The notes below the pieces were generated by a model. That model was not told the DNA's origin. It worked only from the letters and a program-made list of their open reading frames with translations, and searched no databases. 64,000 nt of DNA from an uncultured Candidatus Saccharibacteria bacterium (GTDB taxonomy: Bacteria; Patescibacteriota; Minisyncoccia; Phycocordibacterales; UBA9973): assembly GCA_964544225.1 (NCBI GenBank), contig CAZIZK010000001.1, positions 54,856-118,855 of the forward strand. Reading direction: 5' to 3'. A program made the translations under genes and the position numbers. Position 1 is the stretch's first letter; each line of letters starts with the position of its first letter. Below are positions 3,432 to 36,694 of this stretch, piece after piece.

Positions 3432-3465
3432 ATCTTTATTGCAAAATCGTTTAAACTATGCTATA

Positions 3466-3481
3466 CTGTATCTATGCACAT
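3466..3481 (+). promoter_or_regulatory. Candidate SOS-box-like operator CTGT-N8-ACAT overlapping the repressor start codon
   Basis: ctgtatctatgcacat is one mismatch from the gamma-proteobacterial CTGT-N8-ACAG; tatact (-10-like) lies just upstream. This is a weak call. Confidence 0.2.
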
Positions 3482-4112: not shown

Positions 4113-4125
4113 TTTATAAAAATAT

Positions 4126-4368: not shown

Positions 4369-4385
4369 AAAATAAATATAAAATT

Positions 4386-4757: not shown

Positions 4758-4762
4758 TATAT

Positions 4763-5731
4763 ATGCGTAAAGCTCTAATTGTTGGTATTAATAATTACCC
4801 AGGTAATCCACTCAAAGGGTGTATAAATGATGCATCATCATTTAAAACTGTTATTGAGAAAAACGGTGACGGATCACCTAATTTTTCTACAAGGCTAGAA
4901 ACTGATGTTCCTACAAAATCTCAACTCAAAACAATGCTAAAGGAATTATTTGAGGGTGATAGTGACATAGCTTTATTTTATTTTTCAGGACATGGATCTT
5001 TTAATGAATTTGGTGGTTATGTAGTTACCCCAGATCATCAAGAAAACGATGAGGGAGTTTCTATGGATGAAATTTTATTGCTTGCCAATAAGTCAAAAGC
5101 AAAAGATAAAATTATTATATTAGACTGCTGTCATTCAGGTGCATTTGGTTCTCCTGCAAGTACTGGTGGTACATCTTGTCAGATAATCGAAGGTGTTGTT
5201 GTTCTAACTGCAAGCAAATCCAGTGAAAGTGCTATTGAAATTAATGGTCATGGTATTTTCACAAATTTATTGATTGATGCATTGCAAGGTGGTGCAGCTG
5301 ATCTTCGTGGTCATATAACCCCTGGTAGTGTTTATGCATATATAGATCAAGCATTAGGACCTTGGGATCAAAGACCAGTATTTAAGACAAATGTAACTAG
5401 GTTTACATCTCTAAGAACAATAAATCCACAAGTTCCAACTGAAACACTTAGAAAAATAACTGAGTATTTTCAAACAGCTGAGCAAGATTACTCTCTAAAT
5501 CCATCTTATGAAGACACGAATTCGGAAGATATTAAACATTCTATTATTGAACCTCTCGCTAAAACAGAAAATGTTGCAGTATTTAAAGATTTGCAAAAGT
5601 TCCAGAGTGTAGGTTTGGTTATTCCAGTAGACGCACCTTACATGTATTTTGCTGCGATGGAGTCAAAATCATGTAAATTAACAGCACTTGGTTATCATTA
5701 TTGGAGACTTGTTAAAGACGGTAAAATATAA
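4763..5731 (+). CDS. Caspase-like cysteine peptidase (Peptidase C14 / metacaspase-like) with a C-terminal domain of unknown function
   Basis: ALIVGINNY...NDA...FYFSGHG (catalytic His) and IIILDCCHSG (catalytic Cys), the canonical caspase-fold dyad order. The remaining ~150 aa are unassigned. Confidence 0.7.
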   Translation: MRKALIVGINNYPGNPLKGCINDASSFKTVIEKNGDGSPNFSTRLETDVPTKSQLKTMLKELFEGDSDIALFYFSGHGSFNEFGGYVVTPDHQENDEGVSMDEILLLANKSKAKDKIIILDCCHSGAFGSPASTGGTSCQIIEGVVVLTASKSSESAIEINGHGIFTNLLIDALQGGAADLRGHITPGSVYAYIDQALGPWDQRPVFKTNVTRFTSLRTINPQVPTETLRKITEYFQTAEQDYSLNPSYEDTNSEDIKHSIIEPLAKTENVAVFKDLQKFQSVGLVIPVDAPYMYFAAMESKSCKLTALGYHYWRLVKDGKI

Positions 5732-5740
5732 TAATTAATA

Positions 5741-6394
5741 ATGCGGTCTTTGGAACAAGTAGCAAGAAAAATAAACTTCCATATTGAAAAGAAAAAACCA
5801 CCAGTTATTAATGAAAAATGGATTAAAGTAAATTCTCCAGCTTCTTATAAATTCATAATTGAAAATTCTATTGATTGGGACACGGTAACAATAAATCTTG
5901 ATAAGTCATACCAAGGAAAGTGGAATAAGTGTTCTAAAAGAAAAAGATACTTAGATCAAGAATTTTATAAAGATGAGGAAGAACTAAATCAAATATTAAA
6001 TACTCATAAAGATAAACTTTATACTTTTGTAAGTAGAATAAACAAAGAAGATGAACTTGTTTGTGACAGAATAAGTATTTTATTAGTTAGACTAGCTCAA
6101 AAAGGTAATACTCTTGCTTTGATAGAAATTAAAAGCCTATATGTTTTTATAATAGATAAGTGGCTAGAAGAAAGTAAATATTTAAAAAGATGGCGTGGCT
6201 ATGAAGAGGAATTAGTAGCACTACTAGAGAGGTGTATTTTCAGATATAGATACTCTGGTACATTTATTGGTTATTTATATAGAACTCTCCAGTTAAGTGC
6301 TTTAGCTTTAGAGCCATTAGAAGCATATTCACTAAATGACAAGGTCTTTGATGGGAATAAAACCAGAATAGACTTTATATCCTGTGAAAATTAA
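5741..6394 (+). CDS. Hypothetical lysine-rich protein in the repressor/TIR/caspase operon
   Basis: 217 aa, no recognisable motifs; 9 nt after the caspase gene. Confidence 0.4.
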   Translation: MRSLEQVARKINFHIEKKKPPVINEKWIKVNSPASYKFIIENSIDWDTVTINLDKSYQGKWNKCSKRKRYLDQEFYKDEEELNQILNTHKDKLYTFVSRINKEDELVCDRISILLVRLAQKGNTLALIEIKSLYVFIIDKWLEESKYLKRWRGYEEELVALLERCIFRYRYSGTFIGYLYRTLQLSALALEPLEAYSLNDKVFDGNKTRIDFISCEN

Positions 6395-6417
6395 CAGGCT
6401 TTTGATACAATAAACCA

Positions 6418-6921
6418 ATGACTATACTAATTATTTTTGTAATCTTAATGGCGGTTGTTTTTATTGTTTTAAAGAAATTTTTCCCAGATATATTTAATGG
6501 CGAGGAGAAAGTAATTAAGTCTCCATATAATTACAAAAAGAAAGACTTTTTAATGAGTCGTGCTGAACATGAGTTTTTTGATATTCTCATTGAGGTTGTA
6601 GGAAATCAATATTATGTATTTCCACAAATACATCTATCAACTATTTTAGATAATAAGGTTGTGGGACAAAACTGGAGAGGAGCATTCCGTCATATTGATG
6701 AAAAGTCAGTTGATTTCGTTATTTGTGATAAAGCATATATCAAACCAATTCTTGCTATTGAACTTGATGATAAAACACACGAAAGAGAAGACAGAAAAGG
6801 ACGAGATGGAGAAGTAGAACGTATTCTTAAAGAATCAGGTCTGTCTCTTTTAAGGTTTGGTAACAATGGGAGCTTTAATAAAGAAGAAATAAAGCGTTTG
6901 ATCTTAGAGAAATTAAGGTAG
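6418..6921 (+). CDS. Membrane-anchored DUF2726-family protein (PD-(D/E)xK-like nuclease fold)
   Basis: N-terminal TM helix followed by MSRAEHEFFDIL...YYVFPQIHL...VDFVICDK...ILAIELDDKTH...RD..VERIL.ESGL.LLRF, which matches the DUF2726 core. Confidence 0.6.
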   Translation: MTILIIFVILMAVVFIVLKKFFPDIFNGEEKVIKSPYNYKKKDFLMSRAEHEFFDILIEVVGNQYYVFPQIHLSTILDNKVVGQNWRGAFRHIDEKSVDFVICDKAYIKPILAIELDDKTHEREDRKGRDGEVERILKESGLSLLRFGNNGSFNKEEIKRLILEKLR

Positions 6922-7199: not shown

Positions 7200-8444
7200 T
7201 TAATGCATATCCATAGATTCAGGCATGCTCGTACTACTTTTAATTTCCTTAAATATACTTGGATTTTCATCTCCTGTTACATCAAGTACTGCCCAAGCAC
7301 CTTTATTCATTCTTGCTAGTGCGTGATCTACAAGTAAATATTTACCTGGAACATCAACAGTGAATTCTACAATACTCGCTCCACCAGGAAGTACAGCGGT
7401 TGCTTGTGTATTGTGTTCCATCGCACCACCTATACTTGCATTTGGATACACGGTATCAAAAATCTCACCAATTACATGGAAAGAAGAGATCAGATTTACT
7501 CCACCATTGCCGACATACATACGAATTTTATCACCAACTTTTGCTTGCATTCGTGGTGTTGTTTCGATACGGCCATTGAAAGTTACATAGTTAGGATGAC
7601 CATCGAGAAGGGCATCAGGATCAAATGGCACCAACCCTTTTTTACCAAGCTGTCCAATGGTGTATAGCTCTCCTTGCATAACATAAAATTCTTTATCGAC
7701 TTCTGTAAACCCTTCTTTTGGATCAACTAAAATCATTCCATATTGTCCATGTGAATTGTGTGTAGAAACATTTGGCGTTGCGCAGTGATAAATATAAAGA
7801 CCTGGGTTTAATGCTTTCCATCTGAATGTTTTTGTTTCTCCAGGTGCTACATGAGTAACTGACGCTCCACCTCCTGGACCTGTAACTGCGTGTAGATCTA
7901 TGTTGTGGTCATGTAGACTTGATGGGTCATTTGTCAGTGTTAATTCTACCGTATCCCCCTCGCGTATACGAAGCATTGGACCAGGAACTTGTTTGTTGTA
8001 TGTCCAGTAGTTGAAATAAATTCCAGGAGATATCTCTCCGAGGACTTCTTGTGCAGTCAAACTAATACGCACAATACCGTCTGCGTCAGGTGCTTGTGGT
8101 TTTTCTGGAACAGCTGTCGGATCTGCACCAATATCTGCGACTTTATCGAAACGATTTTCATATCTAAAAAAGTCTATAATTTTAGCAAATGGGATAGATG
8201 GAGGGAGTCCACCCGGAGCGTGTGAATGCACAAATGCTGGCATAGCAAAATCAGGAGGATAAGTTTTGTTTGCCACTAGTCCTGTGAAAAAAGAAATCAC
8301 AATTAGAGCCACTGGAATGTAAAGCCATTTTTGCTTAAAAATTGAATGGAAATGACCTTGTTTCCATATATATCGCACAATTATGACAAAGGCTATAAAA
8401 CCTACTATTCCAGATATCATTTCAAAAATAAGGTATTTAAACAT
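7200..8444 (-). CDS. Copper-containing nitrite reductase (NirK)-like two-domain multicopper oxidase, membrane-anchored
   Basis: N-terminal TM helix; cupredoxin-type ligand motifs HDHNIDLH, YIYHCATP (Cys) and HGQYGM (Met). Confidence 0.55.
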   Translation of the reverse strand: MFKYLIFEMISGIVGFIAFVIIVRYIWKQGHFHSIFKQKWLYIPVALIVISFFTGLVANKTYPPDFAMPAFVHSHAPGGLPPSIPFAKIIDFFRYENRFDKVADIGADPTAVPEKPQAPDADGIVRISLTAQEVLGEISPGIYFNYWTYNKQVPGPMLRIREGDTVELTLTNDPSSLHDHNIDLHAVTGPGGGASVTHVAPGETKTFRWKALNPGLYIYHCATPNVSTHNSHGQYGMILVDPKEGFTEVDKEFYVMQGELYTIGQLGKKGLVPFDPDALLDGHPNYVTFNGRIETTPRMQAKVGDKIRMYVGNGGVNLISSFHVIGEIFDTVYPNASIGGAMEHNTQATAVLPGGASIVEFTVDVPGKYLLVDHALARMNKGAWAVLDVTGDENPSIFKEIKSSTSMPESMDMH

Positions 8445-12081: not shown

Positions 12082-12405
12082 TTGTTGCATACTTTAGAAA
12101 CTATGAAGATTAAACAACCACTCCCTCGTAAAGCCTACGAGAAAAATGCCGAAATATATAAGATTCTTGCTAACCCGAAACGGTTAGAGATTTTGAACTT
12201 GCTTCGCGAACAGGAAATGCCAGTAGAAGAACTAGTAAAAACACTGGGGATCCCAAAAGCAAATGTGTCCCAACATTTAGCACTACTTCGTCATGCAAAA
12301 CTTGTCACCGTGCGACGTAATGGACTAAATGGTTATTACAATATCATTGATCCGCGTATTGTTGAACCATGCAGAATTCTTCACGAACTTGCTAAGCGCA
12401 AATAA
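12082..12405 (+). CDS. ArsR/SmtB-family metalloregulator
   Basis: HTH_20 pattern ANPKRLEILNLL...VEELV...SQHLALLRHAKLV...RNG...YY. Confidence 0.75.
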   Translation: MLHTLETMKIKQPLPRKAYEKNAEIYKILANPKRLEILNLLREQEMPVEELVKTLGIPKANVSQHLALLRHAKLVTVRRNGLNGYYNIIDPRIVEPCRILHELAKRK

Positions 12406-12486
12406 TAGAAAATAATTTATTTAAAAGTTGCAAACAAAGACAATGATTGATTTCATTGTTTATATCAAAAGTTTCTTCAGCATGAA

Positions 12487-12888
12487 TTAAGTAAAATTAA
12501 CCACGAAGTTAAACATTCCCATACTACATAGACCTTGGAGTGGAACTCCAGCTTTTGGTGTACCGATATCGATAACTTCTTCCCCAGTTTGAGCTAATAT
12601 TTTTTGATAGCCAATTGATCTGATAACTAAAGATGATGAACAGTCGTACGTTCCATTTGTTTTGACAATTAGTTTAGTTGGGATCCCTGCTTTTGCAGTA
12701 GACATTTCTGGAGAATATCCACCTTTTGCATCTATGGTTACATACTGAATACCATCTCTAATTTCTACATTTTGTACTGTCTGTACTGAAACTGCATTAG
12801 AGTTTTTAGACTTTGATCCACCCCAAAATACAATGGCAAGTCCAACCACAAGAGCTAAGGTAACAATGATTAAAGAAGTTTTGTTCAT
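12487..12888 (-). CDS. Secreted/anchored cupredoxin-like copper-binding protein (putative)
   Basis: N-terminal signal/TM; C-terminal Cys/Met-containing QGLCSMGMFNF; position in the cop operon. Confidence 0.35.
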   Translation of the reverse strand: MNKTSLIIVTLALVVGLAIVFWGGSKSKNSNAVSVQTVQNVEIRDGIQYVTIDAKGGYSPEMSTAKAGIPTKLIVKTNGTYDCSSSLVIRSIGYQKILAQTGEEVIDIGTPKAGVPLQGLCSMGMFNFVVNFT

Positions 12889-12905
12889 AATGTAATTATA
12901 TCAAA

Positions 12906-13913
12906 TTAAATATTAAATAAAGGATTAATAATACCGAGCCCTGCAAGTCCTGCGAGAAGTGCAAATATTCCAAGACCTATGACTACAACTCCTGCTGACT
13001 TAAAGAAAAGTGGTGCATGTTTTCCATGAGCAAGTGATGCTCCACCAAATGAGAGAAGTAAAAGTACCGGAAGAGTACCGAGAGCAAAGGCAAGCATTAT
13101 AAACATTCCAGATATAAATGACCCACTAGAGAGTGCCACAACTTGCATAGACTGAGTGAAGCCACAAGGCAAGAAGAATGTACCAAAACCTATAATTAAT
13201 GGTGTTAGAGTTTTGTGTTCAATTTTACGAAAAAAATTGAAGATTCCTGAAGGCAGTGCAATTTTATTCTTTTCAAACACTCCGACTAAATTGAGTCCTA
13301 AAAGGAGCATTACTGTTGAGGCTACAATTCCTAAAATTGCAGTAAATGTAAAACTAATACCAATTGCATTACCGAGCAATCCAAGTACTCCACCAAGCAT
13401 TGCAAAACTAACGAGTCTCCCAACATGGAAAAGTACAAATGTTTTCTTGTCACTTACATCATCTTGTGAGATCTTTGCTGAGAGTGAAAGCACAAACCCT
13501 CCGACTACAGCAAGACAGCTAGATACAGAAGCGATGAGTCCAATAATGAAGCTCGTAACTGGTGTAGCATTCCCACCAATACCAAGGTTTAGTAGTCCTG
13601 ACTTTTGTAATATAAAGAAAAGTATTAAAAATCCTAAACCTATAGGTAATGCTTTCCAGATAACATCATCTTTTTGTTTCTCTTTTAAAACTTTTTCTAT
13701 TGATACCGTATATCCATTTGGTCTTATCTTTTCAGTTAGAATACCTGCTAATTCTTCTTGTGACCTTTCACTACTAGTTTCTACTTGTAAGGTTTGACTC
13801 TTTAAGTTTACCTGTGCATTTTTAATGTAATCTTGCTCGCTCAAAATATCCTCGATCAAGATTTTACAGGATGCACAATGGGTACCTGAAACATGGAATG
13901 TGTATGTTTTCAT
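12906..13913 (-). CDS. Heavy-metal-associated (HMA) domain fused to a DsbD_2/CcdA-like polytopic membrane protein
   Basis: N-terminal GTHCASC HMA motif, then about 6-8 TM helices including an FLPCG motif. Confidence 0.6.
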   Translation of the reverse strand: MKTYTFHVSGTHCASCKILIEDILSEQDYIKNAQVNLKSQTLQVETSSERSQEELAGILTEKIRPNGYTVSIEKVLKEKQKDDVIWKALPIGLGFLILFFILQKSGLLNLGIGGNATPVTSFIIGLIASVSSCLAVVGGFVLSLSAKISQDDVSDKKTFVLFHVGRLVSFAMLGGVLGLLGNAIGISFTFTAILGIVASTVMLLLGLNLVGVFEKNKIALPSGIFNFFRKIEHKTLTPLIIGFGTFFLPCGFTQSMQVVALSSGSFISGMFIMLAFALGTLPVLLLLSFGGASLAHGKHAPLFFKSAGVVVIGLGIFALLAGLAGLGIINPLFNI

Positions 13914-13915
13914 AA

Positions 13916-16186
13916 TTATAATTTCTTCGCCTTAATTCTTAATGAGTTCGATACTACAGAGACACTTGAGAATGCCATAGCAAGTCCTGCGAATGCTGGA
14001 TTTAACAACCATCCAAATACTGGATAGAAAAGTCCTGCGGCGAGAGGAATACCAACCACATTGAATATAAAAGCCCAAAAAAGATTTTGTTTAATACCTC
14101 GCATTGTCATCTTCGACAGCTTTATTGCTTGTGAAATCTTTGAAACATCACCACCAAGAAGTGTGATACCTGCTGATTCAATAGCAACATCTGTACCTGT
14201 GCCCATAGCGATACCAACATCCGCTTGAACAAGAGCTGGGGCATCATTTATACCATCACCAACCATTGCAACAATTGCACCACCATCTTGTAACTCTTTT
14301 ATCTTTCCTGCTTTTTCTTGAGGTATCACTTCTGCAATAACAGCATCAATGCCTGCGAGTTTTGCTATATAGCTTGCTGCTAAATAGTTATCTCCTGTGA
14401 GCATTATTACTTTAATATTTCTTGCATGGAGTTTTGCTACAGCTTCTTTTGACTCTTCTTTTAGAGTATCTGAAAGTGCGATAAGTCCGATCTGTTTTTT
14501 ATCAACTTCTATGATAACAACTGTCTTACCTTGTTCTTGTAGTTCTTTGATATTATCTGTAGCAGGGACACCTTTAGATGGCTTATGGATTGCTATATGT
14601 TTATTACCAATCACTCCTTCTACCCCGACACCTTCGAGTGCTTGGAAATTTGTAACCGTTTCAAGAGGTATGTTTTGTTCGGTTGCCTTAACAACAACAG
14701 CATCTGCGAGAGGGTGTTCAGAAAGCTTTTCTACACTAGCACTTGCTCGTAGTATATCTGTTCCTGTCCATGCAGTATCAAGAGAGATAATATCGGTTAC
14801 TTCGGGTTTTCCTTTAGTGATTGTTCCTGTTTTATCAAGGACAACGGTATCTACATGACTAAGCTTTTCTAGGGCTTCAGCATTACGAATAAGGATTCCA
14901 TATTCTGCTCCTTTTCCAACACCGACAATGATTGCCGTTGGAGTAGCAAGACCAAGTGCACAAGGACAAGCAATAACAAGGACACCAACGAAAGAGAGAA
15001 TGCCGTATGAAAGAGCAGTCGAGAAACCGAGCGCTGATGCACCTACAGTAAGCCAAAGAATGAGAGTGATTACTGCTATACCTAGGACAATTGGCACAAA
15101 GACGCTGGAAATTTTGTCAGCGAGCGCCTGTATAGGAGCTTTTGATCCTTGTGCATCTTCAACCATTTTTATGATTTGAGCGAGTACAGTATCGGAGCCG
15201 ATTTTTGTCGCTTTAAATTTAAAATTACCTTGTTTATTGATTGTTGCACCTACAACAAAGTCTCCAGTCTTTTTATCAACAGGAATTGGCTCGCCTGTAA
15301 TCATTGATTCGTCAATAGATGAATATCCTTCAACGATAACTCCATCAACAGGAATTTTAGATCCTGGCTTTACGATAAGAATATCGTCGATTTGTACTTC
15401 GCTTACAGGTACTTCCACCTCAGCACCATTACGCCATAGTAAGGCGGTTTTTGCTTGAAGACCAAGAAGTTTTTCTATTGCTTCACCAGTACGAAGCTTT
15501 GAGCGTGCTTCGAGATATTTTCCCAATATCACGAAACCAATTACTACAATAGTTACATCAAAATAAGTGGTTTCAGGAAGTTTCAAGGCTATCCTCATTA
15601 AAGGGAAGAGCATAATGCTGATACTGTACAGATACGCAACAAGTGTTCCAATACCAATGAGGGTATCCATATTAGCGACACGATATTTAGTAAATTTTAC
15701 TACTCCTTGTAAAAAGGGTTGTCCAATCCAAAACAATACAACGCTCGCAAGTACCATAGAGATGGTGTTGAAGATAAACATTGGTAACGGAAGATTTGGA
15801 ATTGAAGTAAATAACTTTGCACCGATATCCCACATCATTAAAATAAAAACAAGAAGAGCTATTGGTAACACGAACTGTGTTTTTGTCTTCATAATAATAA
15901 GCTCTTTCATTTTTTCATCTTTTGATTGATTGATACCTGTATGCATACTATGGTCTTCCATGGTATGAGAGTTGGTTTCCTCAATGAACATATAACCCAA
16001 CTTTTCAATTTCATTGTTCATTTGGGGTACAGTAACAACATTGTCATCAAAAGAAACAATTGCTTTTTCCGTCGCGAAGTTAACATTAACAGTATCTACT
16101 CCTTCAAGTTTAGAAACCTTATTGGTGATAATAGTTGCACAACTAGCACAGTGCATCCCTTTAATTTTTAGTGTTTTATTTGTCAT
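13916..16186 (-). CDS. copA: Copper-translocating P1B-type ATPase
   Basis: HMA GMHCASC, membrane CPC ([11 protein letters not shown]), DKTGTIT phosphorylation site, [10 protein letters not shown] hinge. Confidence 0.9.
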
Positions 16187-16200
16187 ATAGGGATTTGATA

Positions 16201-16764
16201 TTAAATGTTATACCATTGTGTTCTCCAATCTTTGAAGAGTTTTAATGTTGTTGTAAGGAATATATCAACCGCATCGGCATTGTTCAAAATTTCAGTTCTA
16301 CTTGATTTTGTTTTTATTTCTTTTGTCATGAGTAATCCTGACTCATGGTGTGCAATAAGTGCATTAAGAAAACGGAGGTCAAATTTCTCATCATACGTCC
16401 CAAGGTTTGAGACAATTGGATCTTTGACTTGCTTTGTATCCCCATACCAGTCTTTTTTCCATGTGTATAGCTCAGCAATTGCTTTTGGTTCATCTCGAAG
16501 AATCATTACGGAGAGGTCTTTCATTTCTTGTCGCTGTGTCTGTGTGCTTGCTTGTGTAGCTAAAAGCATGGCTCCTCTGTGGTGAGCAATCATTGCATTG
16601 ATATAACGAAGATCGAGTGTTCGATCTGGACGACCTAAATCCATAGTTGTTTTGTCGTACATACTCACTTTGTAGTCGGTGGTACTGGCATACCCAGCAA
16701 CCCACCCCAAAACGCCTGTCACTACCATAAGAGAAATTGCTAATGTGGTTGAAATTTTAGACAT
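16201..16764 (-). CDS. DUF305 family protein (copper-resistance associated)
   Basis: Two repeats carrying the IAHH motif ([22 protein letters not shown]); N-terminal TM. Confidence 0.7.
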
Positions 16765-16802
16765 AATTTTTTATATAAATTTAATAATAAAACACTAAAA
16801 AC

Positions 16803-17078
16803 CTACTGCATGTTGTAGATTTTTAACAATTCTTTGATTGAACCTTCCTTGTCGGTCTTTAACCTTTCAGCAAGGCAAGACTCTAAGTGACCCTTTAGTA
16901 ATTCTTTTCGTGCGCTATGCAAAAGACCTACGACACTATCGATCTGCTGAATAATTTCAGGGCAGTATCGTCCATCGTCGACCATCTCAGGAATCTTAGC
17001 TACACTTCCTATTGCCATATTAATAACTTTGCGAGCCTTTGTGTTTGGCTCACCGTGCTTGTGTGTTTGTTTTACCAT
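16803..17078 (-). CDS. csoR: CsoR/RcnR-family copper-sensing repressor
   Basis: 91 aa DUF156 with YCPEII...H...C ligand pattern; heads the cop operon. Confidence 0.75.
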   Translation of the reverse strand: MVKQTHKHGEPNTKARKVINMAIGSVAKIPEMVDDGRYCPEIIQQIDSVVGLLHSARKELLKGHLESCLAERLKTDKEGSIKELLKIYNMQ

Positions 17079-17101
17079 ATACCCTATAGTATAGGGTATA
17101 T
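17077..17101. promoter_or_regulatory. Perfect 25-bp palindrome ATATACCCTATA-G-TATAGGGTATAT overlapping the csoR start; candidate CsoR operator
   Basis: Exact dyad symmetry; the TACCC/GGGTA half-sites resemble known CsoR operators. Confidence 0.6.
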
Positions 17102-17120
17102 GGTTTTGAGAGTCAACTTA

Positions 17121-18449
17121 TTATTTTACCAATGTAATCTTCTTATCATTCAGCACCAACCTACTCCTCAAATGTCCCATCAGTTCACGCTTCTCTAGTG
17201 GTGTGCCTTCCCTCAGCACATACTTGGCATACTCTCTTGTATTCACGTCATCTTCGTTGATGTTGTATTTTGGCGTTCCCTTGGTTGCCAGTCGTTGCAG
17301 TCTATTAAATCGCTTGATTTCTTCTTCAAGCTTGATTCGCATACCTAGTTCGTTGATGCTTACTTTATCTATGACTTTGAATAGCTCCTCAATCAGTTCT
17401 TCCTCTCGTATATATTTATTCTTGCAATTCCTGTCTCTTGCCTTTGAACAGGAGTAGTAGACATACTTGGCGGTCGTTCCATCTTTGAGTTCCTTGTACT
17501 TCTCCTGTGCCGTTATACCTGACTCACACATTCCGCAGGTAAATAGTTTAGTAAATGCGAACTCTCTGTTTTCTCTCACAATCCTATCTCGCTTTAAATG
17601 TGATTGGGCTTTTTCAAATAATTCTTTGGTGATGATTGGTGTATGACTTCCTTGATACCAGTTGTCACTATTTCTCGGATATTCAAATGGTCCATAATAG
17701 ATTGGCATTTCAAATATTCGATACACTCCTGATAGTGTAAGGGGCTTATTTCCTCGAGTGTAGAAATTCAGATCGAATCGCAACCAGTTATATACCTTTC
17801 TTCCGCTCCATCCATCGTATGCAACTTTCTCAAACATTTGTTTGATTACATGAGCCCGATCTGGGTCAATAATTATCTGACACTTCCTATCCATTAACTT
17901 TTGATTCAAATATCCAAGCGGTGCCATTCCAGGCCATAGCCCCATCTCTACTCTCGTTCGCAATCCTCGCTTTACATTGATGCCTCTGTTGTCGTTCTCA
18001 AGTTTCGCTTGGCTTCCCAATATCATCAGGAGAAACTTCTCGTTTGGATTGTTTCCGAATGTCTGCCCGAAGGTTCGTATCATGTGCAATTTTCCTGCAT
18101 CCATCAGGTCTACGATTTTTCCCAAGTCTCCTGCATTTCTTGAGATACGATCTGGTGCCCAAGTAAGTATCGCATTGAATTTCTCTTGCTTGAGTTCCTC
18201 AATGATTTCGTTGAAGACTGGTCGCTGTCCTGTTTCCTTTGCACTATGACTCTCACGCTTCATGGTTACTACTTCAAGCCCCTCACGATCCGCTAATTGG
18301 AGCATCTCGCTAATCTGGCTATCAATACTCAATACCTGCCGTTCCTCAGACTCTGTTGATTTTCTTGCGTATAAGCAATATCTGATCTTCTTTGGTTCGA
18401 CTACTACTTTTGCTACACCTTGCTCCATATTTGGGTTTTCTATCTTCAT
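17121..18449 (-). CDS. Large serine recombinase (resolvase/invertase N-terminal domain plus recombinase and zinc-ribbon domains)
   Basis: N-terminal YARKSTESEE...SIDSQ (catalytic Ser region), C-terminal Cys cluster CGMCESG...YSCSKARDRNC. Confidence 0.85.
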   Translation of the reverse strand: MKIENPNMEQGVAKVVVEPKKIRYCLYARKSTESEERQVLSIDSQISEMLQLADREGLEVVTMKRESHSAKETGQRPVFNEIIEELKQEKFNAILTWAPDRISRNAGDLGKIVDLMDAGKLHMIRTFGQTFGNNPNEKFLLMILGSQAKLENDNRGINVKRGLRTRVEMGLWPGMAPLGYLNQKLMDRKCQIIIDPDRAHVIKQMFEKVAYDGWSGRKVYNWLRFDLNFYTRGNKPLTLSGVYRIFEMPIYYGPFEYPRNSDNWYQGSHTPIITKELFEKAQSHLKRDRIVRENREFAFTKLFTCGMCESGITAQEKYKELKDGTTAKYVYYSCSKARDRNCKNKYIREEELIEELFKVIDKVSINELGMRIKLEEEIKRFNRLQRLATKGTPKYNINEDDVNTREYAKYVLREGTPLEKRELMGHLRSRLVLNDKKITLVK

Positions 18450-18592
18450 ATCTACATTGATGACGCAAATCGTCCAAGGAGCCTAGAGCGTCCCATTGCC
18501 ATAGTGTTGGTAACTAAAACGCCTTTATTTAAGGGTCATTTTTTGGTAAAATGTATTTACTGGCGTAAGAAACTTATGCCTAATATTAAAGT

Positions 18593-21112
18593 ATGAAAAT
18601 TTTTATTCGCAATAATTTATATCGCTCAAAAAAATTTTGGCTCATAAAAAAATGGTTTGAAGAAAAACCAATTTTTAGCTTTTGGGCAAAGATCTTTAAA
18701 CTCGACTTTAATATAAATAAGGGTAAATATTCGGCACGCTTATTGTGGCCTTCAATTTTTCCATTCATTCGGACACTTATCTATTCTATTTTTATAATCG
18801 CAATTTTTGAAACGTACAGTTACTTTTTTCCAGTGGATCAAAAAATATTTAGTGATCAGGTTACTGATACACTACTTTCGGCGATTGCCAGTGTATCCGG
18901 TGTATTCCTTGGTCTTTATTTTACGGCTGTTTCCAGTATCGCAAGTAATTTTTTATTACGTGCCACTCAAAATATAAGGCGCTACTTCCTTTCGACTCCA
19001 ATTGGAGAACAATACGTTAGGACCGTAGCCCTTACGGGTATCATAAGTATTTTTTATCTGTTGGCAAAATCGTTTGGACACCCAATACACCCAGTTGGCT
19101 TAGTATTTCTTTGTATTGCTGGAGCATATATCATAATCAGATTTTGGAGTGTTGGATCAAATGTTTTCTATTCATTGGAACCAACTGTTGCCCTGCCTTC
19201 AATCGGTAAAAACATTGCAGACCTATTGAAGGGGGTTACGCCACCGGGTTTTAAATGGGATAAACCAGCAATACAAAATCATCAAAGACGCCTAGTGTCA
19301 GACAATTTGGAGCTTGCTAAAGACCTTATTGATTTTGGAATTAAAGAGATAAAGCTTTCAAATGAACAATTACATATTGCTCTTCGTTATTTAGGTGGTT
19401 TGCTTTTTTTATATCCTCAATACAAGAAGAAGATACCGACTAATAGCTTTTGGTTCAAAACAAAAAATCAGTACGATAGTTGGACCTTAGCGGATTCAAC
19501 ACAAATCGCGCTTGCCTTAAACACTGGCACAAGTTTGCAACCCAAGACAATCAAAGATTTTACTTGGTTTGAAGAAGAAACTTTGGATATGAGTGTAAAG
19601 ATTTTTGAGTTTTACGCCAAAGAGAAAAATGTTGCCTCTGTATTCCAAGGACTAGAACTTTTTGTAGAAATCGCTGAAGTTTATGCGAGTGAGTTTGATG
19701 AGGAAGGACTAAAGCTTCTTTTACAGAAAACAGAAAAGGTTGCAGGATTGGTCGACCTAGAAAAAGTAGCAGATCCAAAAAATGTTCGGTACAAAGAACA
19801 AATGGCTTTTATTGATACTCAAGGCCGGTTAGCTATAGGGGCGGTGCTTGGATTGGCTAGGTATCTTGATACTGCTTCTGCGGAAAGCTTATCCACGACT
19901 ATTTCAAATATTAAGTGGTATTCAAATAAAAACATTTATCTTACAGGGCTACCTTTGTCGGTTCTATCGCGTCTGGAATCTACTGCAAGTGATTTAAAAG
20001 CTGAAATGCTAATTGAGGGTAGGCAGCTTTCCCCTGAGTGGTATATACGCACTCTTTGCGTTCAGAAATACTTATTCGCACTCTTAGGTTATTTCAAATA
20101 TCTAAAAACCCTTCATTCAACTTACTTTGAACCAAAGCTTGGAAAATTGCTTGCCGAGGATCAATTAGGTCTTGCTGTTCAATTGGTGCAACGCTGGATC
20201 GAGTTTACTCACAAATATAATCGGCTCGTTGGATTGATTGCAAAACATATTGAAGATTGTGTACCTTATCACCAAGTCAAAGATCTTTCTTGGATAGAGT
20301 TTAGTGCAGACGAAGAGTATAAAACCGCAAGGGACCGCGAAAAAGAAGTAGCCGATAAAATGATTAGATTGTTGCCTCGATTAATGACAATGCCTACCGA
20401 AAGCGATATGCCAGACTACTTTGGGCAAGCTCTTACGCAAGGCGTTCAGGCCTGTTATGAGGCGTGTGAGGAGAACGACCCAGTCAGGTTGAAAGCAATA
20501 TTCCCGGTTGTTTTTATAGCTTCACTTTCGGCTTTTGATATGACGAGAGTGAGAGTTCAAAACTGGTCCGAAGAACAAAGCAAAATAATCTATTCAACAG
20601 AACCTCTTATAAATCTCTACGAACTAAGTGGATTTGCTAAATTGTATTCAGAGCTCTACCAAAACACGGAGCTTTGGAATGTTGTGCAAACACCGTGGGA
20701 CACTTATTTGGGTGGTATCGATGCCGTACAAGAAATTACACGCATCGCGGCCATTACTAACTATCGACGTGGACTTTTCATGATCATGCCACAAGCAACC
20801 TTACGAACAAACTGGCAAATGCGATTTAGTAATAAAATGAGAGAACAAGGTTTAGCTGTTTTCCCCGATAGTAGAAGCTATGACTATGTAAATGGCCGAG
20901 AAGATCCTGCGCATGCGAGCGCGATTATTCGTGTAGTTACTCGATCAGGTGGTTTGAGTTTATCTACAGGTCAGACCGTATTTTTCGTAACATATTTATC
21001 CCAACACCCAGGGGCAACAGGAATTGATCTACCAGACCAACGCGACATGAGAGAACAAATACAACGAGAAGAAGAAAGATCTAATGAGGAAGAAAATAAT
21101 GACTATGAATAA
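18593..21112 (+). CDS. Large hypothetical protein (839 aa), N-terminal multi-TM anchor plus large soluble region, acidic C-terminal tail
   Basis: Long intact ORF with four predicted N-terminal helices and no recognisable catalytic motif. Visibly GC-richer than its neighbours. Confidence 0.5.
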   Translation: MKIFIRNNLYRSKKFWLIKKWFEEKPIFSFWAKIFKLDFNINKGKYSARLLWPSIFPFIRTLIYSIFIIAIFETYSYFFPVDQKIFSDQVTDTLLSAIASVSGVFLGLYFTAVSSIASNFLLRATQNIRRYFLSTPIGEQYVRTVALTGIISIFYLLAKSFGHPIHPVGLVFLCIAGAYIIIRFWSVGSNVFYSLEPTVALPSIGKNIADLLKGVTPPGFKWDKPAIQNHQRRLVSDNLELAKDLIDFGIKEIKLSNEQLHIALRYLGGLLFLYPQYKKKIPTNSFWFKTKNQYDSWTLADSTQIALALNTGTSLQPKTIKDFTWFEEETLDMSVKIFEFYAKEKNVASVFQGLELFVEIAEVYASEFDEEGLKLLLQKTEKVAGLVDLEKVADPKNVRYKEQMAFIDTQGRLAIGAVLGLARYLDTASAESLSTTISNIKWYSNKNIYLTGLPLSVLSRLESTASDLKAEMLIEGRQLSPEWYIRTLCVQKYLFALLGYFKYLKTLHSTYFEPKLGKLLAEDQLGLAVQLVQRWIEFTHKYNRLVGLIAKHIEDCVPYHQVKDLSWIEFSADEEYKTARDREKEVADKMIRLLPRLMTMPTESDMPDYFGQALTQGVQACYEACEENDPVRLKAIFPVVFIASLSAFDMTRVRVQNWSEEQSKIIYSTEPLINLYELSGFAKLYSELYQNTELWNVVQTPWDTYLGGIDAVQEITRIAAITNYRRGLFMIMPQATLRTNWQMRFSNKMREQGLAVFPDSRSYDYVNGREDPAHASAIIRVVTRSGGLSLSTGQTVFFVTYLSQHPGATGIDLPDQRDMREQIQREEERSNEEENNDYE

Positions 21113-22151
21113 ATACTTTAAAAAAATTAAAGAGGTGGTGTTGGCCTACTTAAAAGATCCTCTTTTATTGCGAAAGTGGGATCAACCAGATTATTACCGA
21201 TATAGAGGACGTGGTGATAATAATAATCAGTTGTCATTCAGGAGTTCACGAAACAGACGTCACAGGTACCATTATCACGGTACGTCTTCAATGTTCATTG
21301 AAGATATGTTTAGCGGAATAATGCCGTTTATGATTTATAGCGGCGTTAGAGAAAAGTATCCTGCAAAAATTGAACCAGCCGCACCCGATAAAGAAGCAAT
21401 AATTGCTCAAGGTCTTTCTGGTCGCAGGCATCGAACAGCATTAGGTGAAGGTCTTTGTGATTTTGTGCGTGATACAGCACATGTGCTTTTTCAAGACGGC
21501 TTAGCAATATACGAAATTATTTATAAAAAGAACGAAACTGGAGAAACCGAAAGCTATAGCTTTGAATTAATGGATCATTATGGTCTATATAGATTTTTTG
21601 GTAATTACTATCAATTTGTTTCTTGGGCTGATGCAAAGGCTTCACATACCAAAGTTCAAATAATCAAAATACCAAAAGAAAAAGTATTACGCATCGAGTT
21701 CCCAAAAGAACTCGGCGGGCAAAAACGTATCAATAAAATATTAAAGCGATCATGGGAACTCGGACAAGAGATTATTCCTAAGTTTCAAATGGACGCAATG
21801 GAAAAACAAGAAAACATTGGCTTTGATTCAAAGATATATACGGAAGCAAAGTATTTAGAAATTGCGACTCTTACAAAAGACTTGGGATGGAACCAGCGCC
21901 AGTTATCAACCAACCATATTACGGAATATTATGCCCTTCTACGTCTTCTTAGGCAGAAAAAAGTAGAAGCTACTGTTCGAGAAAAGATTTTTACCAAACT
22001 TAATGAAGTCTTAAATGGATCAGTTTTAAACTTTGACGCTCAAGTTTCAATGGATAATCTTTTTACAGCTTCTGATATTGATGCACGTGTCAAAAAACTT
22101 ACAGAAGGTAACACAACTTTTATTGATTTGTTTACTGATACAAGTTTTTAA
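21084..22151 (+). CDS. Hypothetical protein (355 aa) overlapping the preceding gene by 29 nt; Arg/His-rich low-complexity N-terminal region
   Basis: The overlapping start implies translational coupling with the 839-aa gene. Confidence 0.45.
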   Translation: MRKKIMTMNKYFKKIKEVVLAYLKDPLLLRKWDQPDYYRYRGRGDNNNQLSFRSSRNRRHRYHYHGTSSMFIEDMFSGIMPFMIYSGVREKYPAKIEPAAPDKEAIIAQGLSGRRHRTALGEGLCDFVRDTAHVLFQDGLAIYEIIYKKNETGETESYSFELMDHYGLYRFFGNYYQFVSWADAKASHTKVQIIKIPKEKVLRIEFPKELGGQKRINKILKRSWELGQEIIPKFQMDAMEKQENIGFDSKIYTEAKYLEIATLTKDLGWNQRQLSTNHITEYYALLRLLRQKKVEATVREKIFTKLNEVLNGSVLNFDAQVSMDNLFTASDIDARVKKLTEGNTTFIDLFTDTSF

Positions 22152-22244
22152 GATTTGAAATTTAGCTGTTGGTAACTCTACTACACAATGAACTCAATCT
22201 AAGCTAAAGTACAAAAATGCCCCTGAAAATGGTATAATTCGTTC

Positions 22245-22447
22245 ACAATTTAATAACAGACCTAACCCCTCAATTTATTGAGGATATGGTCGCAAAATCC
22301 GTCCAAAGTAAAGAACTCCTAGTCAGAGTCTACTTTGGACGGTCATATCTGGAAACGGGTATGGGTATACCTCACGGGGTATATCGGATCTGGCTAGGAG
22401 CTTTTTGCTACCTATACGGTCCTTCATAACAAAACCGTCCAAAGTTT
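22245..22447 (+). other. Structured 5' leader or candidate ncRNA with an extended -10 (tggtataat), a perfect 12-bp inverted repeat and a direct repeat of ccgtccaaagt
   Basis: ccgtccaaagta-N20-tactttggacgg; a second ccgtccaaagt lies 10 nt before the ATG of the 22448 gene; cctcaa-ttta-ttgagg hairpin. Confidence 0.3.
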
Positions 22448-23365
22448 ATGAAAAATCTTTTAGAAAAGTTTAAACAATTATCTCTTTTTAAGCAGATAAT
22501 TATTGTTCTTGTTGTTCTTACTATTGTTATAGTTAATTTTGATTTATTTAAAAACCTCGTTTACATAGGTCTTGTTGTTGGTGCAATTTATCTTTTATTT
22601 ACTAAAGTATTCAGATCACCAAAAAGAAAAGGACTGGATCTATATTCTCAAAAAATCAAAGAACTTTTAATTGATGGCAATTTGTCAGAGGAAGACAAAA
22701 TAATCCTAGAACAGATTAAAAAAGAGAATAATCTAAACGATAAAGATGTCGAGAAATACAACTTGGCAGGATTCAAAACTTTCTTCGATAAAATTACAGA
22801 TGATTCACGAATTTCAGAAGAAGAAAGAAAAGAACTTGTTAAGATATATTCTGATCTAAATCTGCCAACAGATAAACTCGCATACAGTCAAAGTGATTTT
22901 AATAAATACCATACGCTTCATTTGATAGATCAAGGGACACTTCCAACTATTGATGTACCCAATCTAAATGTTAATTTAAAGGCAGACGAAAAACTGCATT
23001 ATGTAAATAAGGCATTTATTGTTAAAAATAAATCTATAACTACAGGTATTAATTATAGTGGTCTTTCTGGTTCTATTAAGATTGCAAAAGGAATACGCTA
23101 TAGAATCGGAAGTATGAAAATTGCTCCACAGAAAGTAAATGTAATGATGACTGATGATGCAGGTACTTTCTATTTAACAACAGAGAATCTTGGTTATATT
23201 GGTCTTAACAAGCACTTCAGTATGTCATACGACAAAATATCTTCTCTAGATGTTAGAGAAGGATTTTTGTACCTATACAAGAAAGGAAAAGAAGGACCAT
23301 TTATTATTTCAATGGATGATTTTGAACTACCGCTTGCGATTGTTTCTTTCAAGATAAATGAGTAA
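22448..23365 (+). CDS. Hypothetical membrane-anchored protein (two N-terminal TM helices)
   Basis: 305 aa ORF, no recognisable motifs. Confidence 0.4.
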   Translation: MKNLLEKFKQLSLFKQIIIVLVVLTIVIVNFDLFKNLVYIGLVVGAIYLLFTKVFRSPKRKGLDLYSQKIKELLIDGNLSEEDKIILEQIKKENNLNDKDVEKYNLAGFKTFFDKITDDSRISEEERKELVKIYSDLNLPTDKLAYSQSDFNKYHTLHLIDQGTLPTIDVPNLNVNLKADEKLHYVNKAFIVKNKSITTGINYSGLSGSIKIAKGIRYRIGSMKIAPQKVNVMMTDDAGTFYLTTENLGYIGLNKHFSMSYDKISSLDVREGFLYLYKKGKEGPFIISMDDFELPLAIVSFKINE

Positions 23366-23373
23366 GTTTTGTT

Positions 23374-24870
23374 CTATCTTTCCATCTCTTTAAACTTCTC
23401 AGAATATTTTTTAGTAATGTCGTCGACATCTTCGCTAACACCAAGATCAAACATAAAACACCCCTCTGTAATTTCAAGAGTATATAGAAAAGATTCCTCT
23501 ATATAAAAGCACTCCATTGCTGTATCTAGAAGCATACTTAAGCTGTTATTAAGTAGTAATACTTCATCTTGATATGAATCAATGAAACTTTTATAGTGTT
23601 CAGTCATATCAATATCAAATATAGACGAGACTTTTTGAGCCAATTCTTTGAACTCACATAGTGTTCGGTAATTCTTGATTGGCATTGCATGCTTTTTTAC
23701 GAAAAGGAACATGTTTGAAATCGGCATAAGTAATTCGACTTGCTGTTTGTATTCTTTAACAAAGTCAATATTTTCTTTGCAGTTATATAAACTAATGCCA
23801 GTTATAATCTGAACTTGTCTCTGCATCCCCAAGAAATCCTTTTCAATTGTTTGTTCCGTAAGCGAGTCAGTATCAAATAATTTTTGAAAATACTGTTTTG
23901 ATTTTTGCAGTTCAGTATACCAAGCTATAAATAATTCTTTGTGATTATTTTTTGTGTTTCCATTCCATGTATCAAATCTTTCACTCATAAAAATCGTTGA
24001 ATATTCTTTTGTAAACAAACCGTCATCTAGCCATAGAAATATCTTTTCTTTAATAAGAGATTCTATGCTTGTATTTTTACTCTTTGCATATAATTCAATT
24101 GCAGATAATAGTCTTTCTTCAAATTTCTCATCTTTGTCCATGTACGCAATATGAAGATCATCAGCTAGTTTGATGAAAATCTCTTTAATAGGAAGTTCAG
24201 CAAAGAAAACATGGAGTAAGAAGCCATCTTTTTCTGCTGTACTGCGTTTTATCTTCTTTGCTCCCTCATAATACATACGCGAATAAATACGATCTATGAT
24301 TAGGTCTTTGTCTTGTTTAGTGAGAGTATCTCCATTTTTAAATCTTTCATAAAGAAAAACCTGCTCACTAAGGTAGTTATGATCACTGGCTGATCCTTCA
24401 TCTAAAAGAAGCAAATCACTTTGAATGTCTTTTGGAAGATTATTGAAGGTAAATATATGCAGTACTTTTGCGTATTCTAGATAGGTTTGTGCCGTAACGA
24501 ACTTTATACTTTCTTCATGGGAAATGTCTTTTAAAAATTCAGTCTCAACTTTTTCTTTAAATTTTCTCGCGTGAGAGAGGAGGCTATCAACAACTCTCTG
24601 ATTTCGCAAGAGAGATACTTCGGATCTATACAAAAACATTTGAGCATCCATTTTCATGGCATCTTCAAGCTGAACAATATTTATGTATTTGTTGTATTCA
24701 ATTGCTTCTAATCTACTCGGCATCCATCCTTTAGTTAGAATATATAAATCAGATTCCGAAAGGTGTCCCTTACCAGTCTTTTCTCTGTGAATATCATTAT
24801 GAACAAGTGCTTTCACTCGTTCAAATGGAGTTATGTTTGATCTTCTTAAAATATTGGTGAGACTTTTCAT
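23374..24870 (-). CDS. Hypothetical protein (498 aa)
   Basis: Long AT-rich ORF with no recognisable motifs. Confidence 0.4.
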   Translation of the reverse strand: MKSLTNILRRSNITPFERVKALVHNDIHREKTGKGHLSESDLYILTKGWMPSRLEAIEYNKYINIVQLEDAMKMDAQMFLYRSEVSLLRNQRVVDSLLSHARKFKEKVETEFLKDISHEESIKFVTAQTYLEYAKVLHIFTFNNLPKDIQSDLLLLDEGSASDHNYLSEQVFLYERFKNGDTLTKQDKDLIIDRIYSRMYYEGAKKIKRSTAEKDGFLLHVFFAELPIKEIFIKLADDLHIAYMDKDEKFEERLLSAIELYAKSKNTSIESLIKEKIFLWLDDGLFTKEYSTIFMSERFDTWNGNTKNNHKELFIAWYTELQKSKQYFQKLFDTDSLTEQTIEKDFLGMQRQVQIITGISLYNCKENIDFVKEYKQQVELLMPISNMFLFVKKHAMPIKNYRTLCEFKELAQKVSSIFDIDMTEHYKSFIDSYQDEVLLLNNSLSMLLDTAMECFYIEESFLYTLEITEGCFMFDLGVSEDVDDITKKYSEKFKEMER

Positions 24871-24871
24871 A

Positions 24872-25069
24872 TCATTTGTTTTTTCTTAGTGCATTTTCCA
24901 AGAACTCGACCCGTTCTTTAAGTTCTGTGTTGACTATATTTTTTGAAAGCGTAGAAGTAAGCTTAGCAATCATAGATGCCTGCTTGAGTGACATTTCCTT
25001 ATTCATCACTTTACGGATGGTGTCCGAAAGAATGTTATTTATCTCTTCTAGATTAATTGGTTTAGTCAT
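24872..25069 (-). CDS. Small hypothetical protein (65 aa)
   Basis: One nucleotide from the neighbouring gene. Confidence 0.3.
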   Translation of the reverse strand: MTKPINLEEINNILSDTIRKVMNKEMSLKQASMIAKLTSTLSKNIVNTELKERVEFLENALRKNK

Positions 25070-25070
25070 A

Positions 25071-25445
25071 CTAGTTATTTTCTACGATTTCAAACCAAGC
25101 TCTCACTTCATGAGCCTTGCCACTTTTAATAATGTTTTTGTAGAGTGCAAAGATAACATTTGGGGTTAACTTTCTTGCCCAAGAATTTATATCCTGAACT
25201 AATCCGTCTTTCTCAAGTCTTTTGTTCCAATCGGTAAGCGTTCCGACATCGATGTTATATTTTTTTGAGAATTCTAGTTGTGTTTTAATTGCGAGTAATT
25301 CAAACACAGTTTCTTCTTCAATGCCAAATTTCTCGAGTGCTACTCTTGGTTGCCCCTTAAGAAACGAAGGAAGGGACTTCCAAAGAGCGTAAGTCTCGTA
25401 GACTTGCTTTTTATATGGATCTTTAGAAAAATCTTCTTCCTGCAT
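25071..25445 (-). CDS. Small HTH-containing protein, possibly terminase-small-subunit-like or a regulator
   Basis: 124 aa; an HTH-like segment directly upstream of the two MTase genes, mirroring the TerS/MTase arrangement at 1.1-2.8 kb. Confidence 0.3.
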   Translation of the reverse strand: MQEEDFSKDPYKKQVYETYALWKSLPSFLKGQPRVALEKFGIEEETVFELLAIKTQLEFSKKYNIDVGTLTDWNKRLEKDGLVQDINSWARKLTPNVIFALYKNIIKSGKAHEVRAWFEIVENN

Positions 25446-25452
25446 ATATCAC

Positions 25453-36689: not shown

Positions 36690-36694
36690 TATTG

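Follow-up and report, generated by a model that had tools for sequence, protein, structure and literature searches.

A genomic island with a CsoR-type copper operon as probable cargo, from a family of serine recombinase elements found at tRNA-Ser genes of Patescibacteria

Contig CAZIZK010000001.1, assembled from an uncultured Candidatus Saccharibacteria bacterium, carries a set of copper-homeostasis genes directly next to a gene for a large serine recombinase (LSR). We analysed the stretch of 64,000 nucleotides that surrounds these genes (the window; all island coordinates are window positions) and compared it to around 190 related loci (191 were fetched, labelled L001 onward). The comparison makes it likely that the segment from ~12,425 to 28,958 (~16.5 kb) constitutes a single genomic island, which belongs to a large family within the Candidate Phyla Radiation (CPR)/Patescibacteria, and that the copper operon is cargo of this island. 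The genome that hosts the island here is of the Nomurabacteria/Paceibacterota type. Four parts can be discerned: the copper operon, the LSR gene, a variable cargo region that includes a LOOT RNA, and a conserved backbone that ends in a fixed tRNA-like terminus (Table 1). As judged from the flanks of the sister islands, members of the family are located immediately 3' of tRNA-Ser genes.

The tRNA-Ser anchor and the two ends of the island

The tRNA genes of all LSR loci were called using ARAGORN. There were 25 loci that encode an LSR of at least 75% identity and continue for at least 6.5 kb downstream of it, and in 24 of these the first downstream tRNA was a convergent tRNA-Ser, at 0.09 to 6 kb from the LSR stop codon; the exception is L155. 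The anticodons of the anchoring tRNAs were tga, gct, gga, act and cga. More distant LSRs (56-61% identical) were accompanied by a tRNA-Gln or by no tRNA instead. Right after the ...CCGC end of the tRNA-Ser follows a conserved sequence of ~80-100 nt, NNN-GACAACCT(G/A)(T/G)TAG...ATGACCC...hairpin...GCGACCCA...GTTGCA plus a terminator, which was found behind every LSR-proximal tRNA-Ser; the outer members of the tandem tRNA pairs in L130 and L144 were without it. Because this sequence was present at the LSR loci and absent from the tRNA-Ser flanks of LSR-free loci (0 of ~30), we consider it to be the tRNA-proximal end of the island.

The opposite end is defined by the fact that the shared nucleotide sequence stops sharply at 28,958, beyond which six different flanks are found in different contigs. 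This terminus resembles the last 24 nt of tRNA-Ser (GGGTaCcAtaCCC...CCGC), with its T-arm and acceptor 3' strand; the two agree at 14 of the 24 positions when counted by eye. Both ends are present in L110, 15.2 kb apart and each with AT after the CCGC, and the empty site that can be reconstructed from this locus (tRNA-Ser...CCGC-AT-AGTCGTGCTAGCACGAC) matches the actual flanks in L171 and L056. In the island-free loci L029, L031, L032 and L045, the native 3' flank of tRNA-Ser(tga) is the same segment that lies beyond the terminus in the window, so that the order tRNA-Ser(tga)-terminator-RNA gene in these loci, which are not strain-level relatives, stands against terminus-terminator-RNA gene in the window. 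A search for a strain-level empty site by way of the exact DUF305, DoxX and CsoR proteins yielded occupied sites or different contexts only, and the outer flanks of L116, L110 and L107 gave no informative matches in this respect. The RNA-like gene in the flank is strongly structured (-50.3 kcal/mol, z = -4.9) and has its own terminator; no Rfam family matched it. The small open reading frame at this position was rejected as a coding gene, since its reading frame is not conserved. The RNA-like gene was observed in convergent orientation to tRNA-Ser(tga) in the four island-free loci as well as in L047.

The tRNA-Ser genes could also have been carried in by the element itself, like in tRNA-carrying phages, in which case the true attachment site would be elsewhere or insertion would be non-specific. 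The occurrence of five anticodons, including the unusual ACT, and of tandem tRNA-Ser pairs (L130, L144) would fit such a scenario. However, occupied and unoccupied loci agree in the genes that lie 5' of the tRNA and in their order (DUF5652, RuvX, tRNA_bind, with a tRNA-Arg/Val ~4 kb away), as in L002 and L045, respectively, for the three protein genes, and the unoccupied tRNA-Ser(tga) loci bear the exact flank that is found beyond the window terminus. We therefore regard a load of element-borne tRNAs as highly improbable.

The window copy has lost most of its tRNA-side end. No tRNA-Ser was found in the window and none of the island ends abuts a tRNA 3' end there; what is left of the proximal end is ~35 nt, which correspond in the alignment to the innermost part of the conserved sequence. 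In place of the remainder and of the tRNA stands the 3' end of an ArsR gene, the stop codon of which (12403-12405) abuts the remnant. The arrangement LSR-csoR-...-cupredoxin-ArsR recurs in the independent contig L098. Given the truncated end, the missing tRNA-Ser and the junction to ArsR, the window copy is probably fixed in place and no longer mobilisable.

The original prediction had placed an integrative element at 12.4-18.5 kb, with the LSR at its edge and with inverted repeats of attachment (att) type to be expected near both limits. The island, as delineated above, runs 10.5 kb further to 28,958, and no such repeats were found at 12.4 and 18.5 kb; a search of the whole window for inverted or direct copies of the fixed terminus likewise gave nothing that exceeded shuffled sequence. 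The region beyond the LSR had also been described as compositionally distinct, but its GC content does not set it apart (0.36-0.41 over 12-22 kb vs 0.35-0.39 in the left flank), and the change in sign of the GC skew near 19 kb merely reflects the switch of the coding strand.

Table 1. Features of the island and its surroundings in window coordinates, with the support for each assignment
Feature	Position	Strand	Support or remark
Multicopper oxidase g09	7200-8444	-	flanks the RNR-CobAT block
ArsR/SmtB-type regulator	12082-12405	+	flanks the RNR-CobAT block
Remnant of tRNA-proximal end: AAGTTGCAAAC (12425-12435) and terminator hairpin ACAATGA/TCATTGT (12440-12459)	12425-12459		alignment with tRNA-Ser flanks of L097, L114, L128 and others
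Cupredoxin-like protein, 133 aa, final gene of the copper operon	12487-12888	-	Pfam Cupredoxin_1 PF13473, E 4e-7
HMA (CxxC) + DsbD_2 membrane protein, 335 aa	12906-13913	-	Pfam PF00403, PF13386
CopA-type P1B copper ATPase, 756 aa	13916-16186	-	Pfam HMA, E1-E2_ATPase, Hydrolase
DUF305 protein, 187 aa	16201-16764	-	Pfam PF03713
CsoR repressor, 91 aa	16803-17078	-	Pfam Trns_repr_metal PF02583, E 5e-16
csoR promoter and operator	17074-17116	-	-35 TTGACT 17116-17111; -10 TATACT 17093-17088; palindrome 17074-17104
Large serine recombinase, 442 aa	17121-18449	-	Pfam Resolvase PF00239, Recombinase PF07508, Zn_ribbon_recom PF13408
Variable cargo, 839-aa and 355-aa proteins	18593-22151	+	no Pfam, PHROG or PADLOC match
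LOOT RNA RF03000	22259-22385	+	Rfam 83.7 bits vs gathering score 46.4
305-aa protein	22448-23365	+	weak DUF5048 and PDC-S48 similarity
Backbone: 498 aa, 65 aa (24872-25069), 124 aa, two methylases, 231 aa, 148 aa	23374-28856	-	Pfam, PHROG
N6/N4 DNA methylase (backbone)	25453-26202	-	Pfam/PHROG
ParB_N-methylase fusion (backbone)	26189-27457	-	Pfam/PHROG
Fixed terminus, proposed attR (element arm), ...GGGTACCATACCCGAGTACACCGC	28919-28958	+	identical or near-identical terminus before six flanks
Host flank: terminator and structured RNA-like gene	28959-29125 (RNA 28975-29125)	-	conserved in relatives

The backbone and its cargo

The backbone proteins are 93-100% identical in L011/L022, while the ribonucleotide reductase (RNR) and DoxX of these loci are 84% and 59% identical, respectively (host genes 59-85%), which clearly indicates horizontal transfer of the backbone. 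Its genes precede the LSR in the same order in the Kaiserbacteria loci L007/L008 and in numerous contigs from metagenomes, and the order was also seen in L110, L114 and L117. The cargo between backbone and LSR differs from locus to locus: the 839-aa and 355-aa proteins of the window have counterparts of 96-98% amino acid identity in L114/L117, and unrelated genes take their place in L097, L007, L012 and L116. No virion protein is encoded in the element according to the PHROG comparison, and the 839-, 355-, 498-, 231- and 148-aa proteins matched nothing in PHROG or PADLOC; the family matches that were obtained are chiefly those of the LSR, which is of the integrase class (PHROG 95), and of the two phage/plasmid-type DNA methylases. 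Each of the seven other islands examined also had a LOOT RNA, located on the strand opposite to the LSR and 3-5 kb upstream of it. The loci that bear the motif are L002, L007, L012, L107, L110, L114 and L116, and also L020; copies outside islands were seen in L002 (at 19019) and in L020, an RNR locus.

A second variable slot lies between the LSR and the tRNA. This slot holds an SDR and an aminotransferase in L110, hydrolases in L109/L137, an SNF2 helicase in L007 and copper-related genes other than those of the window in L107 and L171, and it is empty in L128 and L135. Read from the tRNA, the layout of the family comprises the conserved ~80-100-nt end, the variable slot, the LSR gene facing the tRNA, the second cargo region with the LOOT RNA, the backbone and the terminus ...ACACCGC. 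The swapping of slot and cargo contents is most easily explained by homologous recombination between islands, with the conserved LSR, backbone and ends as the regions of homology. Such exchange would account for the mosaic identity blocks in the window, which is 100% identical to L001 over 16.0-18.75 kb and 100% identical to L097 over 13.0-17.25 kb, with diverged flanks in both cases. The locus L001/L010 (JGI Ga0558716_15055) is a decaying sister island, in which the genes for the 839-aa protein, the 498-aa protein and both methylases are fragmented; its LSR, csoR region and DUF305 gene retain 96-100% nucleotide identity to the window.

The slot of the window island is occupied by the copper operon. 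The six minus-strand reading frames at 12487-18449, i.e. five copper genes and the LSR gene, are present as the original prediction had described them, and every domain assignment in it was confirmed by Pfam. The intergenic gaps in the five-gene set are just 2-38 nt, which fits a single operon. The translated CopA contains an N-terminal GMHCASC motif and the CPC, DKTGT and SEHP motifs, and CsoR contains the candidate Cu(I) ligands C39, H64 and C68, the spacing of which equals that of C36/H61/C65 in the CsoR of M. tuberculosis. The best sigma-70-like promoter of the region (TTGACT-17-TATACT, 17116-17088, 10 of 12 matches) starts 4 nt past the LSR stop codon. It is overlapped by a palindrome that was predicted to be perfect, to extend over 25 bp and to overlap the csoR start codon. 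The palindrome is indeed perfect and covers the csoR ATG (17078), and in addition the -10 box, but it measures 31 bp (15+1+15).

The operator core (ATACCCTATAC..GGGTAT) is kept upstream of csoR among the relatives, including the LSR-free loci L024, L035, L059, L187 and L190. A -35 hexamer TTGAC(T/A) is retained in four of these (L024, L035, L187 and L190; not in L059) and both promoter elements are conserved in L024 and L035. In these alignments the conservation of the operator far exceeds chance, and given its presence in relatives without an LSR, the palindrome represents a CsoR operator and not an att site. The proposed control of the operon by CsoR is thus supported. The published consensus for type-2 CsoR operators is ATATACCCCTNAGGGGTATAT (PMC3902906). 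The window operator shares with it the TAC...GTA dyad and the G/C tracts over the promoter, although TAC and GTA are 13 nt apart rather than the 9 nt of the consensus, and the GGG tracts are short; sister islands such as L106 and L114 carry TATACCCCCTAGGGGGTATA, which comes close to the published sequence. By analogy with characterized systems, apo-CsoR would occupy the 31-bp operator and so block the -10 box and the start site, and binding of Cu(I) at C39/H64/C68 would release CsoR, so that the DUF305 protein, CopA, the HMA-DsbD_2 protein and the cupredoxin-like protein are made. The copper responsiveness of the operon is to be expected on basis of this homology.

The spacing of the C-H-C ligands and the P1B-type CopA with an HMA domain are common to the known CsoR copper efflux operons (M. 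tuberculosis cso, B. subtilis copZA, S. lividans csoR/copZA). What distinguishes the window operon is the lack of a CopZ chaperone, the presence of the DUF305, HMA-DsbD_2 and cupredoxin-like proteins as accessories, and the location inside a mobile island. Apart from these unusual accessory genes, the operon is an ordinary representative of the CsoR-CopA class.

That the copper operon belongs to the island follows from the position of the conserved end. In L097, L112, L114 and L117 the operon lies between the LSR stop codon and the conserved tRNA-proximal end, and thus within the unit that would excise. From DsbD_2 up to the 3' part of its LSR gene, L097 matches the window at 100% identity, and after the cupredoxin gene it continues with a terminator, a spacer and the convergent tRNA; a very similar terminator-spacer-tRNA arrangement directly follows the LSR stop codon in L128, L132 and L135. 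Moreover, LSRs of ~95% identity are found 4-20 nt upstream of different CsoR-type promoters: type A is that of the window, type B (TATACCCCCTAGGGGGTATA) occurs in L106, L112, L114, L116, L117 and L118, and a third type in L155. The fact that at least two CsoR types lie between an LSR and an island end marks the copper operons as island cargo. Around 5 of the 45 independent junction types downstream of the LSR carry copper or metal genes, and per junction type LSR and copper operon are colinear with 92-100% nucleotide identity, the cargo upstream of the LSR being swapped.

The copper operon could also be seen as host flank of an 11.8-kb element, as the similarity among the LSR loci ends at the LSR stop codon. 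A related explanation would distinguish two entities, in which an LSR element of ~11.8 kb (17,121-28,958) with a preference for csoR promoters as target was inserted just upstream of the -35 box of a native copper operon. The nucleotide homology to the closest LSR-free csoR loci (L024, L187/L191) indeed ends just 5' of the -35 hexamer, i.e. exactly 4 nt past the LSR stop codon, the nearly identical LSRs abut two different CsoR operator types, and copper operons without an LSR are frequent near the RNR block of relatives, none of the 80 RNR loci containing an LSR. Yet, L097, L112, L114 and L117 have the conserved island end on the far side of the copper operon, and in L128 and L135 it directly follows the LSR; the host-side sequences past the LSR stop share no common motif among the 45 junction types, and promoter targeting explains only ~10% of the contexts, whereas the tRNA-Ser anchor explains all of them. 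On account of the anchor and of the end beyond the operon, the host-flank reading was rejected, and the explanation by two entities must be considered unlikely.

The 80 RNR loci were obtained from a genome scan with the class II ribonucleotide reductase that neighbours the island, and mapping of the window proteins onto them recovered the LSR in none. Those with a name are mainly from Candidatus Nomurabacteria/Paceibacterota, and many were labelled as uncultured Saccharibacteria by the submitter. Copper genes (cupredoxin, DsbD_2, CopA and sometimes CsoR or DUF305) occur near the RNR block in at least 13 of the 80, at varied positions and in varied orientations; in L029, for example, tRNA-Ser and an RNA gene are followed by the genes from cupredoxin to csoR and then by the RNR block, an LSR-free and apparently native arrangement. 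The junction of ArsR and cupredoxin is also found in L019 and L067. The original prediction is thus supported in part. Its core, that the copper module is part of an LSR-linked integrative element, is borne out by L097, L112, L114 and L117; the extent and the compositional argument did not hold, the tRNA-Ser anchor had not been foreseen, and the window copy is truncated. Nor is the operon confined to islands, since many relatives have LSR-free copper operons near the RNR block.

In the window, copper genes flank the RNR block on both sides, as g09 encodes a multicopper oxidase. The relative order and orientation of RNR block and copper operon vary among the relatives, which, at the level of gene order, suggests repeated inversions or transpositions around tRNA-Ser(tga). 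L019 contains an expanded copper locus (14700-19630) with extra membrane and Cys-rich proteins between DsbD_2 and CopA and with a gene resembling REP-associated tyrosine transposases; its protein with a 'CPY/CPF' motif is also found in the slots of L107 and L171. An accessory patch at 1143-6921 of the window encodes an HTH protein, a paralog of the ParB-type methylase (41% identical to that of the island), an S24 LexA/CI-like peptidase, a caspase-like C14 peptidase and DUF2726. Homologs of its genes g01/g02 are found just upstream of LSRs of 57-61% identity in L166, L168, L170 and L177, and the patch may be a remnant of a related island. Finally, a tRNA-Ile with anticodon TAT (UAU) is encoded at 36694-36768 on the minus strand, near the tmRNA gene (40771-41164). 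This tRNA is uncommon in bacteria.

The recombinase and its proposed role in integration

All three Pfam domains of the recombinase score above the curated cut-offs and its best PHROG match is PHROG 95, integrase. The putative nucleophile S31, within YARKST, aligns with YLRRS in the structure of SPbeta SprA/YokA (9dxd). The protein is a bona fide LSR. More than 8000 homologs were found, the best 120 of which are 73-95% identical and are distributed across Uhr-, Nomura-, Kaiser- and Niyogibacteria. The genes that follow the LSR stop codon differ widely, as is evident from the 45 independent junction types. Multi-targeting LSRs have been defined as 90%-identity clusters that occur in more than three unrelated targets, often with a DUF4368 domain (Durrant et al. 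2022). We rejected this class for the window LSR, considering the constant tRNA-Ser anchor and the absence of DUF4368 from its Pfam domains, which argue for site specificity. In L124, L125, L127, L144, L150 and L185 (the latter classed as viral in IMG/VR) a second LSR paralog (44-55% identical) was observed in convergent orientation, directly past the first and before the tRNA-Ser; these pairs may reflect tandem or nested islands.

In the mechanism that we propose, the LSR would act on an attP site in which the terminus meets the GACAACCT end, and would recombine it with the very 3' end of the tRNA-Ser gene, leaving the tRNA intact. The junction in the excised circle would then read ...CCCGAGTACACCGC-NN(N)-GACAACCTGTTAG.... 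Both the integration by the LSR and the exact crossover point are inferred. Outer GGGTA...GACCC motifs at about +/-24 nt are suggestive only.

Several observations weigh against the reading of the segment as one tRNA-Ser-anchored island with copper cargo. In L155, the LSR of which is 93% identical, there is no tRNA within 10 kb downstream, and in L107 there is none within 5 kb. Both ends are visible in a single locus (L110), and the attL remnant of the window is short (~35 nt). The excised junction was detected neither in the viral collection nor among the 191 fetched loci, clear inverted-repeat symmetry or a central dinucleotide could not be fixed at the att sites, and a recombination directionality factor was not identified in the element. 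With respect to the cargo, many copper operons near the RNR block share the operator but have no LSR (L018, L024, L029, L031, L035, L055), and an identical CsoR protein is encoded on contigs that lack an upstream LSR (L187/L191 and L190).

In L187 the operon is preceded by a tRNA-Gln and by a conserved end motif of another kind, GCTAGCACGAG. Taken together with the LSR-free contigs that encode the identical CsoR, this indicates that the copper operon is moved by more than one kind of carrier. A second conserved motif, (A)GTCGTGCTAGCACGAG, was observed after the 3' ends of tRNA-Ser or tRNA-Gln in L187 (1152-1400), L191, L110 (~600-662), L166, L171 and L056, and may either mark the border of a different island family or be a tRNA trailer hairpin that is conserved. 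The type-A copper operon of L187 begins ~150 nt past this motif, with no LSR visible.

The LSR might also not be the integrase of the island at all and act as an invertase, resolvase or cassette exchanger, the island being moved by other means or by homologous recombination only. The mosaic identity blocks shared with L001 and L097 show that homologous exchange is frequent, relatives differ by inversion or transposition of the RNR and copper blocks, and the failure to find an attP junction points in the same direction. Such a role is nevertheless very unlikely, in view of the complete three-domain architecture, the best match to an integrase class and the fact that the LSR is the sole recombinase of the island and its most conserved gene. 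At least six unrelated flanks adjoin the same island ends, which requires site-specific insertion.

Comparison with known elements and significance

The window LSR has the Resolvase, Recombinase and Zn-ribbon domains in common with the serine integrases of prophages (SPbeta SprA/YokA, A118, TP901-1, phiC31, Bxb1), and here too the integrase gene lies near one end of the element. The window element differs in that it lacks virion genes and has as its apparent target the 3' end of tRNA-Ser instead of a protein-coding gene, and in that its family has a cargo slot between the integrase gene and the att end. The tRNA islands described by Islander/TIGER, which have tyrosine integrases, likewise start at a tRNA 3' end, with the integrase near that end and variable cargo, and a tRNA-like fragment at the far end and tandem islands at one tRNA (as in L110) are common to both. 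The family described here uses a serine rather than a tyrosine integrase, and the fragment at its far end, which is borne by the element, mimics the tRNA (14 of 24 positions, by eye) instead of repeating it directly. SCCmec, with its ccrAB recombinases and its site at the 3' end of rlmH/orfX, is comparable as a non-phage island with serine recombination and resistance cargo at the extreme 3' end of an intact conserved gene; it has two recombinases where the window family has one, and the latter targets an RNA gene, carries copper instead of antibiotic resistance and resides in CPR hosts. Among 297 serine-integrase elements, Mageeney et al. 2020 (PMC7192596) found 14 that used a t(m)RNA gene, which was unreported before and for which experimental proof was called for.

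On balance, we favour the view that an abundant LSR clade of CPR/Patescibacteria uses the 3' ends of tRNA-Ser genes (several isoacceptors) as its attachment site, with elements that carry a tRNA mimic, a LOOT RNA and two exchangeable cargo bays, one of which has repeatedly been filled with CsoR copper operons that spread metal tolerance. If true, the clade would be the first in which serine integrases target tRNA genes in a large number of instances. Dozens of independent loci point to tRNA-Ser and thereby to a concrete attP/attB pair, possibly a new specificity class for genome engineering.

The mobile elements of the CPR have scarcely been described, and our literature search retrieved no paper that ties serine recombinases to integrative elements in Patescibacteria. 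The present data provide an island family of which the ends and the anchor are defined and which has thousands of relatives. They also give a genomic context to the orphan LOOT RNA motif, which in this family is island-borne and always upstream of the integrase. For the hosts, which are reduced and host-dependent bacteria, the island would represent a route by which copper tolerance can move between CPR lineages.

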